Part shown: one piece after another, positions 29,814 to 32,897 of the stretch | Position numbering within the stretch: position 1 is the first letter of the stretch | How the letters are laid out: each line of letters starts with the position of its first letter | Assembly (NCBI GenBank): GCA_024408295.1 | Contig: JAKSVE010000003.1 | Location: forward strand, 2,043-66,042 | Source of the DNA: Bacilli bacterium | GTDB taxonomy: Bacteria > Bacillota_I > Bacilli_A > RFN20 > CAG-826 | Reading direction: 5' to 3' | DNA: 64,000 nucleotides | The notes under the pieces: generated by a model | Database searches by the model: none | What the model was told of the DNA's origin: nothing | What the model saw: only the letters and a program-made list of their open reading frames with translations | Position numbers and translations under genes: made by a program

Positions 29814-31433
29814 TTACTTGGAAGTGTTGAAGACGCAAATTGAACCGATGTTCATTGTGTTTGATGTACCAGCGATCGTAATCTTATGATTTCCTGCTGG
29901 AACGTCAACTTCACCAAGGACGACTGGATAATAGTTGATTCTGTTGTTAACGTTACCCATGCCCGCTTTTGCGTATGTAACATCTCTGATCGTGACTGCT
30001 TTTCCATCAAGTGAGCAGCTGATTGCAGAACCAATCTTTTTTGTAGATGAGTTTTCAGTATTTCCTAAGTATGCGACAACCTGTCCTTTGTAAGCTTCTG
30101 AAGTTGAGAATGAATAGCTAACTGTTTTTGATGAGCTGTTAAGGAGGACGTTTGCAGGTGTTCTATTGTTAAGGTTCTCCGCTGTGAGTGTGGCTCCACC
30201 ACCCAACTCAAACTTATCTGCTGTAGCTACAATCTGACCAGCCTTATTTCCTGATGCTAATTCACCTTCGGTGAGAATGCTGATGACTGAGTCAAGGTTT
30301 GCTGCCGGAACTCCAATTGAGAGGAGGGTGTTGTAAACCTTGTTCTTGAATGACTTACCGGCAACCATCTGGATGTCGTTTACATAATTCTCGATGTTAT
30401 CCTGGCCTGCTGCTTCACCGATTTTTCTCTTATCTTCGATATTTCCGAAGTTGGAGAAAAGGTAATCCTGGTAAATGTCGTTTAAATCAACGCCTAACAA
30501 ACCAGATGTGAGGATTGCGCATAATCCAGTTCTATCTGTGCCAATTCTGCAGTGGAATGCTGCTGGGTAGACCGATTCGTCAGAAATGCATTTGAAGAAT
30601 GCTTTAACCGATTCAGCATTTCTTGAGAAATGAGAAGCCGCACTGCCTCCATAATCCATATAGAAATTCTTCTGAGTTGTTCCTTGGAGATTGATATTGT
30701 ACTGAGTGTTGCTGTTAACGTTGATTTCAGTCTTCAAGCCGATATGTTCAAGCAGTTCCTTCTTACCATTTGCATTGATAATGCCCCTGCCCTCACTGTT
30801 CTGAGATTTTGTTTGGAAATTATTACCGCTAGTACGATATAAGAGGCCTTGCTTAACTGTTCCGCCGTCTTCTGTTGTTCTTCCGCCCATATCACGGCAG
30901 TTTGTTAAACCTTCAATCTTGAGGTTTCTTGGATAGACAGAATCTACGTCAAATTCCATTATTTCGGAGTCTTCAACCGATCCATCATCATAGTAAGCGT
31001 GAAGCTGGAAGTAATTCTTTCCAAGGTAAGGGTTGATGAGTGATACGCTCTTTGTTTTTGAGCCAATCAATTCATAACCATCGCTTAAATCAGCTTCCTT
31101 ACCATAGGTAACGGTATAGTTTTCGAAACCTTCATCCGGTTCGTGTTCGAAATCAATCTTTACAGGGAGAGAGTCTGAGTTGAACTCATTTCCGTCTGGA
31201 TACTGATCAAGCGGCATCTTTGAGTAATCACCACCCCACTCAAGATATTTCTTCTGATCTGCTGTGTGAATTTCAAACATTTCGTTTATATCAGTTGTGA
31301 CATTAAAACCAGAGATAGGTTCTGGTGGCAATTCAGACTCGACGGATGATTGCTGATTAGCAGGTGTCTTTCCGCATGACGCCATGATAAAGGTCGCCAA
31401 GAAGGAAAGAGCTAATATATTGTGTTTTTTCAT
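29814..31433 (-). CDS. Surface lipoprotein with tyrosine-phosphatase-like (Y_phosphatase3, PF13350-type) domain and C-terminal beta-sandwich (CBM-like) region
   Basis: 539 aa. MKKHNILALSFLATFIMASC-G carries a lipobox. NCRDMGG is present, as is the CX5R P-loop HCRIGTDRTG. Confidence 0.7.
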   Translation of the reverse strand: MKKHNILALSFLATFIMASCGKTPANQQSSVESELPPEPISGFNVTTDINEMFEIHTADQKKYLEWGGDYSKMPLDQYPDGNEFNSDSLPVKIDFEHEPDEGFENYTVTYGKEADLSDGYELIGSKTKSVSLINPYLGKNYFQLHAYYDDGSVEDSEIMEFDVDSVYPRNLKIEGLTNCRDMGGRTTEDGGTVKQGLLYRTSGNNFQTKSQNSEGRGIINANGKKELLEHIGLKTEINVNSNTQYNINLQGTTQKNFYMDYGGSAASHFSRNAESVKAFFKCISDESVYPAAFHCRIGTDRTGLCAILTSGLLGVDLNDIYQDYLFSNFGNIEDKRKIGEAAGQDNIENYVNDIQMVAGKSFKNKVYNTLLSIGVPAANLDSVISILTEGELASGNKAGQIVATADKFELGGGATLTAENLNNRTPANVLLNSSSKTVSYSFSTSEAYKGQVVAYLGNTENSSTKKIGSAISCSLDGKAVTIRDVTYAKAGMGNVNNRINYYPVVLGEVDVPAGNHKITIAGTSNTMNIGSICVFNTSK

Positions 31434-31537
31434 ATGATAGCCTCCATAATTGCCATTGATTTTACTTTAATCAGAAAGTAAATAAAGTATCATTTACGCT
31501 AATAGAAATAGGACAATCTTTAGATTTTGCAGGGAAA

Positions 31538-32323
31538 TCAATCATTTAATAACGCATCGTATGCGGCAATGTCGGATTCTTTTTCCATGCAGAAAACGAC
31601 CACTGGAGCCTCAGGATGCTCTGAGATGAAGTCTTCCACGGTTGATATAGCGATTTGGGCTGCAACGGAGGAAATGAAGCCATTTTCACCAACAGAGATT
31701 GCAGGGAACGCAACAGTTTTAACCTTATTTGTAATGCATCTCTTTAATGCTGACACATAACAATTGGCTAAATCATTTTTATCCTTGGTGGACGGTCTGT
31801 TTCTAAATGTTGGACCAACGGTGTGAATAACGTATTTAGCTAGGAGGTTATAGCCTCTTGTAATATGAGTACGTCCAGGAACCTCTTCATGCCCTATTGC
31901 CTTAATTATTTGATCGCAGTCTTCACGAAGTCTTGGTCCCGCTAAAGAATGAATTCTGTTGTCGATGCAGTTGTGTCCGGGGACAAAGCAACCCAACATA
32001 GCTGGGGTGGCCGGGTTTACAATGGCGTCAACAGCAAGCCTGGTGATGTCGCCAGCATAAAAACCTATCTTTGAGAAATTGGTTGCAGGTAATTTACTTA
32101 TACCAACAACATTGATTTCTTCCCTTTCCGTACGAAGAAGAATATCAAGTTTTTCACTTATATCGACAGGCAATGGAGATGGTCGGCGAACATTAAGTAA
32201 ACCTCGCAGTGTCTTTCTTTGATATGGATAAGAATAATTACCAGCATTAAAGAGATCCATAAAATCAGGCATCTCCTTAAGGAAATAGGAAACTAGATAT
32301 GTAACTGTATCTTGCTTATCCAT
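31538..32323 (-). CDS. Macrodomain protein-ADP-ribose hydrolase (Zn-binding Firmicute type)
   Basis: 261 aa. Motifs GDITRLAVDAIVNPA, LGCFVPGHNCIDNRIH, ITRGYNLLAKYVIHTVGP and AFPAISVGENGF match the S. aureus/S. pyogenes macrodomain class. ATG lies 3 nt after the upstream stop. Confidence 0.85.
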   Translation of the reverse strand: MDKQDTVTYLVSYFLKEMPDFMDLFNAGNYSYPYQRKTLRGLLNVRRPSPLPVDISEKLDILLRTEREEINVVGISKLPATNFSKIGFYAGDITRLAVDAIVNPATPAMLGCFVPGHNCIDNRIHSLAGPRLREDCDQIIKAIGHEEVPGRTHITRGYNLLAKYVIHTVGPTFRNRPSTKDKNDLANCYVSALKRCITNKVKTVAFPAISVGENGFISSVAAQIAISTVEDFISEHPEAPVVVFCMEKESDIAAYDALLND

Positions 32324-32326
32324 AAA

Positions 32327-32623
32327 TTATAACTTATCAATAGCGTCTTTTAATGAATCAAAGTCTTCGAAGTCTAGATCAAAATCATCAATTCCATTCT
32401 CAAAAACGGTATTTGAAGGTGTTATTGGTTGCTGTTGTTTAACAGGTTTTTTCTTGGTAGCGGTTATAGGGAAAGGAATGCTATTTGTACGCACTACAGC
32501 CTTCAAAAACAAAGTAACTGCAGTAGTCATAGAAATACCTAATTCAGACAACGTTTCTTCAGCATTGTTTTTTAAATCGTCATCAATACGTAAATTTATA
32601 GTTGTCTTCGAATGTTTTTTCAT
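32327..32623 (-). CDS. RelB/DinJ-family antitoxin-like ribbon-helix-helix protein
   Basis: 98 aa. TINLRIDDDLKNNAEETLSELGISMTTAVTLFLKAVVRTNSIPF closely parallels the E. coli DinJ N-terminus. Acidic C-terminal tail. Confidence 0.85.
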   Translation of the reverse strand: MKKHSKTTINLRIDDDLKNNAEETLSELGISMTTAVTLFLKAVVRTNSIPFPITATKKKPVKQQQPITPSNTVFENGIDDFDLDFEDFDSLKDAIDKL

Positions 32624-32629
32624 ATTTCT

Positions 32630-32673
32630 ATAATAATAGTTTGTAATGTTGATGTAAAGCGTTTTGCATTACA
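32630..32673 (-). promoter_or_regulatory. Predicted promoter/operator of the DinJ-macrodomain pair (apparently leaderless)
   Basis: On the minus strand: TTTACA (32653-32658), 17-nt spacer, TATTAT (32630-32635), with the ATG only 7 nt downstream and no SD. Inverted repeat TGTAATG (32642-32648) / CATTACA (32667-32673) brackets the -35. Confidence 0.45.
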
Positions 32674-32855
32674 TATATTATGGAATTTTAAGAAATTATA
32701 ACGTGTATGATAATTTTTTTAATATTACTTAGTTTTCTTTAGTATTTATCAGTCTTTTTTCTTACCTAGTTTCTAGATAACAAAATTTTAGGAGATAAAT
32801 CAAATTCAAATTATCAAATAAATTTAAAATAAATGTTTCACGGTCTAAAAATAGC

Positions 32856-32880
32856 AAAAAGAAAGGCCCTGTCTAGGGCC
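32856..32880 (-). terminator. Intrinsic terminator of the mnmE...ispE operon
   Basis: GGCCCT (32865-32870) / AGGGCC (32875-32880) hairpin followed on the minus strand by UUUCUUUUU. Confidence 0.7.
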
Positions 32881-32897
32881 AAAATTGAAAAGTGATT

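Follow-up and report, generated by a model that had tools for sequence, protein, structure and literature searches.

We analyzed a stretch of 64,000 nucleotides (hereafter, the window) of contig JAKSVE010000003.1, which belongs to a 1.02-Mb assembly (64% complete) from a lineage of uncultured Bacilli with small genomes, and focused on a two-gene operon in which a gene encoding a ribbon-helix-helix (RHH) protein is followed by a gene encoding a Zn-Macro, a zinc-dependent macrodomain of the MacroD type. We consider it fairly probable that an RHH autorepressor derived from toxin-antitoxin (TA) systems heads a reduced Zn-Macro operon, and that this operon is genus-wide, chromosomal, vertically inherited, and self-repressed. 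According to this explanation, the repressor would have descended from RelB/DinJ antitoxins, and its dimer or higher oligomer would bind a tripartite operator over its own promoter, recognized here by conservation, and would thereby set the transcription of its own gene and of the downstream cargo. In the window, the cargo would be the ADP-ribosylhydrolase only, its translation coupled to the RHH gene on an mRNA that is probably leaderless. In related genomes, the same repressor would head RHH-DUF362(Fe-S)-Macro-SirTM, RHH-DUF362-Macro, or RHH-Macro operons, or stand alone. Because relatives carry longer versions under the same repressor, the window would hold the trimmed form of a redox-linked SirTM/Zn-Macro operon, in which the RHH protein takes the place held by HxlR, Rrf2, or MarR regulators in other Bacilli. 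The two open reading frames (ORFs), the RelB/DinJ-like gene and then the macrodomain gene, lie where the initial annotation of this DNA had placed them, as confirmed by their positions and by profile matches:

32327..32623, minus strand: RHH gene, 98 amino acids (aa), with an N-terminal RHH of the RelB/DinJ type that is joined by an acidic, disordered linker to a conserved helix at the C-terminus
31538..32323, minus strand: Zn-Macro gene, 261 aa, encoding an ADP-ribosylhydrolase of the MacroD type that has a three-helix bundle at its N-terminus and carries a Cx4HxC zinc loop
32321..32329, minus strand: gene junction, read from the sequence and its read-through translation; RHH stop TAA (32329-32327), 3 nt (TTT), and macrodomain ATG (32323-32321), in frame

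The 261-aa product matched the Macro profile (PF01661, E-value 3.9e-29) and the protein-ADP-ribose hydrolase model NF003163 (252 bits, slightly below the 272-bit cut-off). Its nearest solved structures were the Zn-Macros 8rsi (4.9e-47), 5kiv (1.3e-42), 8rsl, and 8rsm; the match to MacroD2 (4iqy) was 2e-34. Zn-Macros are defined by a MacroD-type fold, a three-helix N-terminal bundle, a Cx4HxC loop replacing the Gly-rich catalytic loop, and a CIDNxIH dyad (PMC11490716). The window protein contains the motifs GDIT, CFVPGHNC (the Cx4HxC zinc loop), CIDNRIH (the Asp/His dyad), and HTVGP, and its zinc loop aligns with CFIPMHNC in 8rsi and CMQANHDC in 5kiv. Furthermore, the alignment to 8rsi begins at residue 3 and includes LRGLLNVR, the conserved Arg/Asn motif (LRxLxNxR) of the three-helix bundle, and AlphaFold2 (AF2) placed helices at positions 3-17, 19-25, 32-45, and 53-69, with a predicted local distance difference test (pLDDT) score of >90 over the domain. 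The profile matches, the structural matches, and the motifs all bear out the earlier assignment of this protein to the Firmicute protein-ADP-ribose hydrolase class. Between the window and a sister species with an identical two-gene layout (L089), the ratio of nonsynonymous to synonymous substitution (dN/dS) in the macrodomain gene was 0.06, at a dS of ~1.6. Because the zinc ligands, the Asp/His dyad, and the three-helix bundle have been kept under strong purifying selection, the macrodomain is probably active as a hydrolase even though no cognate sirtuin accompanies it. It could be argued instead that it is a functionless leftover of a lost SirTM system, adjacent to the RHH gene for historical reasons only; macrodomain loss, a split gene, and zinc-ligand loss do occur in relatives, and SirTM is absent. 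The window protein, however, keeps all its catalytic and zinc residues at this low dN/dS over a long divergence, and is therefore not a decaying remnant; we regard such a state as extremely improbable. Degenerate RHH-linked macrodomains were observed in other genomes: one gene is broken into two ORFs of 69 and 190 aa (L024:6288-7072), two have lost all three zinc ligands (L028:7450-8244 and L038:1677-2453), and in two others the third zinc Cys is replaced by Ser (L060 and L071).

The 98-aa product matched the RelB profile (PF04221, E-value 4.6e-12) and TIGR02384 RelB_DinJ (66 bits; cut-off, 45.65 bits). DinJ and RelB were also its top matches among solved structures and folds (PDB 4q2u, 4fxe, and 9lew), with the alignment limited to residues ~8-58, and its C-terminal region showed no similarity to RelB or DinJ in the structure-relative alignments. 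A search with the single sequence returned only 4 proteins, so that the family became accessible only with a profile search. The C-terminus reads ...DSLKDAIDKL, and the corresponding motif, [ST][ILF]xxAI[DEN]K[LF], was found in 104 of 121 family members. When the RHH protein was modeled alone, AF2 gave a pLDDT of >90 for the core, <50 for the tail (residues 66-84), and ~70 for the C-terminal helix (residues 87-97). The dN/dS of the RHH gene between the window and the sister species L089 was 0.07, and RHH genes with no macrodomain downstream gave values of 0.06-0.12 and kept the C-terminal motif as well; in five genomes with such a lone RHH gene at the same site, there was no macrodomain anywhere in the genome. 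Since genomes without a macrodomain conserve the C-terminal helix to the same degree, it appears to be intrinsic to the repressor and not a device for holding the macrodomain; its role may lie in oligomerization, signal input, or turnover.

The adjacency of the two genes is a property of the genus. A strong macrodomain homologue was present in 10 of 24 genomes from the same genus, and the RHH gene was upstream of it in nine, the tenth being cut by a contig end. A pattern scan of Genome Taxonomy Database genomes with the RHH alignment yielded 25 RHH loci, 17 of which had a macrodomain gene downstream: 13 were RHH-Macro and four were RHH-DUF362(Fe-S)-Macro, one of the latter being followed by a SirTM-like sirtuin. 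The rest included five lone RHH genes facing a convergent ppdK gene and two unrelated tandem RelB pairs in Clostridia. In one locus (L032), RHH, DUF362, macrodomain, and SirTM genes occur together in one operon. The five closest metagenomic homologues examined all showed the RHH-macrodomain arrangement, and the closest macrodomain homologues (47-48% identity) all lay in the order tatD-rnmV-rsmA-ispE-glmU-(small ORF)-RHH-DUF362-Macro, with nitroreductase, MFS, VIT1-rubrerythrin, Fur, and ppdK genes nearby. In the sister species L089 (86% protein identity), the layout is the same as that in the window, namely rnmV-rsmA-ispE-spacer-RHH-3 nt-Macro-phosphatase-TetR. The initial annotation had asked whether other genomes carry an RHH gene directly before this macrodomain subtype, and these counts show that they do. 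It had also taken the pair for an inserted module; across the genus, however, the pair occupies a fixed site (tatD-rnmV-rsmA-ispE-[glmU]-RHH-...-ppdK), and the GC content of the macrodomain gene is typical of the genome. Synteny and GC content led us to reject a recent horizontal insertion; the module is chromosomal, fixed in its site, and vertically inherited.

The expression signals of the operon are as follows:

32642..32673, minus strand: tripartite operator TGTAATG-N6-GCTTTACA-N4-CATTACA (coding strand), with one inverted half-site and, after it, two direct ones, identified by conservation
32630..32658, minus strand: promoter P1, sigma-70-like TTTACA-17-TATTAT, with the -35 hexamer inside the central operator half-site (promoter scan, 10/12 matches)

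The arms of the inverted repeat are TGTAATG (32673-32667) and CATTACA (32648-32642). In an alignment with two sister species (L089 and L090) at a dS of >1, the operator half-sites were invariant and the intervening bases variable, and the general layout, GTAACG-N5/6-GCGTTACA-N3/4-CGTTACA, was found upstream of all 17 aligned RHH orthologues, overlapping the -35/-10 region. The full operator occurs once in the assembly from which the window derives, and in three relatives the perfect consensus palindrome occurs only at the RHH promoter. Because the half-sites are invariant between variable spacers, the layout precedes every RHH orthologue examined, and the operator is unique in the assembly, the inverted repeat stands beyond chance, and we infer that the RHH protein is an autoregulator that binds the tripartite operator. 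The -10 hexamer of P1 ends 6 nt before the RHH ATG; this spacing is kept in L089 and L090 and, with TACAAT as the -10 hexamer, in L042 and L048, implying that the RHH mRNA is probably leaderless. At the junction, the 3-nt in-frame spacing and the absence of a Shine-Dalgarno sequence before the macrodomain start, in the window and in relatives, support a translational coupling of the macrodomain to the RHH gene. What had been proposed earlier about an own promoter with an inverted repeat around the -35 hexamer, autoregulation, an apparently leaderless start, and the tight coupling of the two genes is therefore upheld, with binding predicted from the conserved operator.

The pair may be imagined as TA-like, with the tail or helix of the RHH protein binding the macrodomain as RelB wraps RelE, and with the macrodomain acting as a toxin or as a co-repressor with conditional cooperativity. 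The RHH gene has the look of a type II antitoxin in its gene order, the 3-nt spacing, the RelB/DinJ ancestry, and the disordered acidic tail with a conserved end helix. Moreover, the RHH gene is always kept across relatives in which the macrodomain has been lost, split (L024), or deprived of its zinc ligands (L028 and L038), which resembles the decay of TA systems into orphan antitoxins. On the other hand, no toxin gene adjoins the RHH gene, which in relatives is followed by DUF362, a macrodomain, or nothing; the RHH-macrodomain pair has no PADLOC match; the locus is fixed and not mobile; and genomes that lack a macrodomain show the same conservation of the C-terminal helix and the same constraint on the gene. 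The two genes are separated by a DUF362 gene in many relatives. It had been foreseen that relatives might carry a gene of a relB-toxin-macro arrangement; an extra gene between the two is indeed present, but it encodes a DUF362 Fe-S protein and not a canonical toxin.

Binding between the two proteins was also addressed by AF2 on the natural read-through fusion (TAA translated as Q; 361 aa), with an alignment for the macrodomain only and none for the RHH part. The macrodomain was predicted with confidence, whereas the RHH tail (residues 45-85) had a pLDDT of <50 and the helix ~55, compared with ~70 in the RHH protein alone. The RHH tail was thus not docked on the macrodomain with confidence, in a test that is weak because it has no predicted aligned error, a 2-residue tether, and an unaligned RHH part. 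No RHH-macrodomain fusion was found when 1.84 billion representative proteins were searched with the fusion: two candidates were rejected, one (P0250, 361 aa) being a tandem macrodomain and the other (P0284) a PNPOx-like-macrodomain fusion. Macrodomain hydrolases are not known to act as toxins, which also counts against the TA-like explanation. Taken together, the evidence speaks against the pair being a TA system, and we judge a TA-like partnership to be unlikely. The DinJ/RelB identity of the N-terminus, as first noticed, stands, but an acidic tail that wraps a partner protein is not supported: the helix is kept without a macrodomain, and AF2 gave no confident docking. Likewise, the idea of a new TA-like, defense, or counter-defense pair is not supported, given the missing toxin gene, the missing PADLOC match, and the constraint on the RHH gene without the macrodomain. 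As a contrast case, the same genome carries on another contig (C6:5606-6361, outside the window) a gene for a 105-aa RelB/DinJ-like protein that is followed after 6 nt by a gene for a 143-aa PIN-like protein; this is a classical type II TA pair.

A non-toxic variant of such a partnership deserves mention. The former antitoxin and the Zn-Macro could form a two-protein transcription switch, in which the macrodomain, or ADP-ribose on the tail, engages the helix or tail of the RHH protein and alters operator occupancy. We would give this idea only a slim chance. If it were true, gene expression would answer to the ADP-ribosylation or NAD/redox state of the cell, a transcription factor, the RHH protein, would for the first time be known as a target or partner of a bacterial Zn-Macro, and a missing SirTM-type target outside the GcvH-L operon would be supplied.

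The initial annotation had noted that no ADP-ribosyltransferase (ART) lies nearby, and wider searches, covering four families (SirTM, DarT, Tpt1, and exotoxin-type ARTs), extended this observation. No ART, SirTM, GcvH-L, or LplA gene is found next to the pair, and neither tblastn nor the SirTM profile detected SirTM in the source assembly, at its 64% completeness. The SirTM profile was also silent in seven relatives that are 95-98% complete, while giving 449-462 bits in the positive controls G420 and G017. The DarT, Tpt1, and exotoxin-type ART models had no match in near-complete relatives, although for DarT (PF14487; seven genomes) the control genomes were silent too. Candidate substrates of the macrodomain would be Asp-, Glu-, or Cys-linked protein ADP-ribose set by an unrecognized endogenous or foreign transferase, or, where a CobB-type sirtuin exists, free O-acetyl-ADP-ribose.

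If the modification came from outside, the Zn-Macro might serve as a stand-alone immunity enzyme that strips ADP-ribose set by foreign ARTs, such as those of phages or competitor toxins, with the RHH protein holding it at a basal level until stress. Near-complete relatives that carry the pair but none of the four ART families, and the strong purifying selection on the macrodomain, fit this idea, and a protective immunity role against toxins of the ART type has been described for orphan ADP-ribosylhydrolases (PMC11833690). The gene, however, lies outside any defense island and has no PADLOC match, and the ART searches were limited to those four families, one of which had a silent control. In addition, housekeeping genes surround it, or, in relatives, genes with redox and iron functions (for nitroreductase, VIT1-rubrerythrin, Fur, and the Fe-S protein DUF362), which points to a redox role, as proposed for SirTM/Zn-Macro systems in oxidative stress (PMC11490716). 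The housekeeping and redox neighborhood appears to fit the oxidative-stress role better than an immunity role, and we consider immunity an unlikely function, although one with a precedent.

It is also conceivable that the RHH protein itself is the substrate and a sensor: its Asp/Glu-rich tail would be ADP-ribosylated by SirTM or another transferase and reset by the Zn-Macro, so that the operon would sense ADP-ribosylation or NAD. The staphylococcal and streptococcal SirTM target, GcvH-L, is likewise small and acidic, is modified at Asp27, and is encoded just upstream of the macrodomain. Minimal SirTM/Zn-Macro pairs have unknown targets (PMC11490716). Most macrodomain-adjacent RHH proteins have a D/E-rich tail, and the locus L032 unites RHH, macrodomain, and SirTM in one operon. 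Across the RHH family, however, tail charge showed no consistent correlation with macrodomain presence: RHH proteins with basic or neutral tails are linked to macrodomains (L041, L081, L085, and L028), and acidic-tailed ones occur without them (L027, L029, and L035). Because most pair-carrying genomes also lack a candidate transferase, and RHH genes without a macrodomain are still constrained, such a sensor is very unlikely.

To place the operon among other Zn-Macros, 400 evenly drawn Bacilli genomes were searched, and the neighborhoods of 34 full-length Zn-Macros were read. SirTM was linked to 26 of them and RHH to five, all from the genus of the window; three had neither partner. In a maximum-likelihood tree, the SirTM-linked Zn-Macros and the three with neither partner formed one clade (support 100/99), and all 21 RHH-linked macrodomains fell outside it. 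The SirTM-linked pairs are preceded by regulator genes (HxlR, Rrf2, or MarR) and by genes of the PNPOx-Fer4, Zn-ADH, or DUF1848 type. The shared architecture is a regulator, a redox/Fe-S protein, Macro, and SirTM, which in the genus of the window takes the form RHH-DUF362(Fer4)-Macro-(SirTM), and the window carries the shortest cargo-bearing form of the RHH-headed operon.

Proteins of the PNPOx-like/4Fe-4S ferredoxin type were observed directly upstream of many SirTM-linked Zn-Macros (for example, L058:2804-3463 and L055:4207-4809), and in P0284 (392 aa) a PNPOx-like domain and a Zn-Macro are naturally fused. This fusion suggests that a flavin/Fe-S redox protein, and not the regulator, is the functional partner of the macrodomain; in the genus of the window, the DUF362-Fer4 protein, which also has a weak Lar_N match, may play this role. 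One complete genome of the same genus (G420) contains two Zn-Macro systems (L077 and L080): an HxlR-Macro-SirTM system, and a long-branched RHH-Macro pair at the ispE/ppdK site. The SirTM-linked macrodomain of this genome groups with those of other orders, suggesting that this copy was acquired horizontally.

Several points weigh against a trimmed, RHH-repressed operon. By the tree, DUF362 and SirTM may have been either lost or inserted. Without SirTM, the Zn-Macro lacks an explained purpose, and two relatives (G427 and G021) have no sirtuin of any kind (PF02146). RHH genes without cargo are kept under selection, though a dedicated operon repressor should go with its cargo; the RHH protein therefore has some function besides macrodomain control. 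An operator scan of the window genome and eight relatives revealed no regulon and no second operator site; a single extra match in one relative (G439) had a different spacing and was equalled by a reversed-pattern control. Finally, the NAAN motif of the macrodomain, which is NAAN or NAGN in relatives, is NPAT in the window protein. An RHH autorepressor over a reduced Zn-Macro operon is nevertheless the explanation that we prefer.

The remaining features of the locus lie upstream of the RHH promoter:

32695..32722, minus strand: candidate promoter P2, TTAAAA-16-TATAAT, ~70 nt upstream of the ATG (promoter scan, 10/12 matches)
32624..32897, no strand assigned: AT-rich spacer between ispE and the RHH gene, 274 bp, 23% GC (window, 41.7%), identified by composition
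32865..32880, minus strand: intrinsic terminator of the rnmV-rsmA-ispE unit, GGCCCTAGACAGGGCC followed by a T-run

The -10 hexamer of P2 (32700..32695; TATAAT/TACAAT) and the preceding TATACA are kept in L089 and L090, and this second conserved hexamer could mark an upstream promoter. The spacer of about 270 bp and the ispE terminator agree with the first description of the locus. Within the spacer, three islands (32826-32843, CCGTGAAACATTTATTTT; 32755-32789; and 32739-32750) show complete or nearly complete identity among three species with a coding dS of >1, and the spacer has no Rfam match and no conserved ORF. These islands could represent regulatory sites, a small RNA, or the relic of a glmU-like gene and a small ORF, which fill the position of the spacer in most relatives. 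The small ORF, which is conserved (84-102 aa) and has no match in Pfam, separates the glmU-like gene from the RHH gene in many relatives (L081:4028-4297, L083:3328-3594, L085:3521-3790, L088:3570-3824, and L041:3779-4087) and is not present in the window. Another ORF (69 aa, no Pfam match) overlaps the macrodomain 3' end in some RHH-DUF362-Macro relatives (L009:1289-1498, L028:8241-8450, and L088:6262-6471).

The window pair is flanked by ispE upstream of the RHH gene and by a Y_phosphatase3 lipoprotein gene and a TetR gene downstream of the macrodomain gene. The lipoprotein gene (within 29814-31537) lies on the same strand as the macrodomain gene, 104 nt after it, with no terminator detected between the two, and the order Macro-phosphatase-TetR is also kept in the sister species L089; transcription from the RHH operon may read through into the phosphatase gene. 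The records of related genomes are labeled Mollicutes, Bacilli, or Bacillales bacterium, and originate from gut and rumen. Six contigs (L024, L026, L030, L033, L036, and L037) clearly belong to the genus of the window, although their "cleanbin" metagenome-assembled genomes were deposited under names such as Escherichia coli, Prevotella sp., Bacteroides uniformis, Sodaliphilus, Lachnospiraceae, and Hallerella; these bins appear to be taxonomically mislabeled.

To date, Zn-Macros have been described only together with SirTM, in a pair, the extended lipoyl-carrier operon, or a fusion, and no target is known for them beyond the GcvH-L operon (PMC11490716). The genus studied here holds a distinct Zn-Macro lineage that has long been without SirTM, in some genomes without any sirtuin, that is strongly selected, and whose regulator was recruited from the TA world. 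With its clean pair of operator and repressor, the locus is a natural setting in which to study a Zn-Macro acting alone. It also carries a warning for annotation, because the RHH genes are labeled "type II toxin-antitoxin system RelB/DinJ family antitoxin" though no toxin exists.

In comparison with known systems, the window operon is closest in its enzyme to the SirTM/Zn-Macro systems, which occur as a minimal pair of Macro and SirTM, as fungal fusions, and, in S. aureus and S. pyogenes, as an extended operon with GcvH-L and LplA2 (Rack et al. 2015, PMC4518038; JBC 2024, PMC11490716). The macrodomain subfamily is the same (three-helix bundle, Cx4HxC, and CIDNxIH; 8rsi and 5kiv), some relatives of the same genus keep SirTM directly downstream, and the redox/Fe-S context of the relatives is shared. 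Unlike in those systems, neither the locus, nor the window assembly, nor the seven near-complete relatives contain SirTM, GcvH-L, or LplA2; a RelB/DinJ-type RHH gene heads the operon, and the RHH-linked macrodomains stand outside the SirTM-linked clade. Neither the GcvH-L nor the LplA2 gene of the extended operon (GcvH-L, LplA2, LLM, and OYE) flanks the window macrodomain, and, by a text search of PMC11490716, an operon headed by such an RHH gene is not among the Zn-Macro contexts described there.

With RelBE and DinJ-YafQ, the locus shares the RHH gene in first position of a tight bicistron, the operator over its own promoter, and the disordered C-terminal extension, in addition to the match of the N-terminus. 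It differs from them in having no toxin of the RelE, YafQ, ParE, or other type, in a C-terminus that is unrelated and has its own conserved motif, and in an RHH gene that occupies a fixed, vertically inherited site instead of a patchy, mobile distribution and is retained under selection without a partner. DarTG is alike in that a macrodomain hydrolase belongs to a two-gene module with a TA-like layout; its macrodomain, however, is the antitoxin of a DNA ADP-ribosyltransferase, whereas the window locus has no DarT (PF14487), its macrodomain is of the MacroD/Zn type and encoded in second position, and the gene in first position is that of a DNA-binding protein. Mnt, Arc, and CopG of phage P22 and plasmids are likewise small RHH proteins with inverted and direct repeats about one helical turn apart over the promoter, but the similarity is limited to the fold (Foldseek E ~2-6), and the helix of the window protein has only ~11 residues and lies behind a disordered linker of 30-40 residues. 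In Mnt, a C-terminal helix may drive higher-order assembly, which provides a lead for the helix seen here. Set beside these systems, the new element is an RHH-headed, SirTM-less Zn-Macro operon, and not a new defense or TA system.

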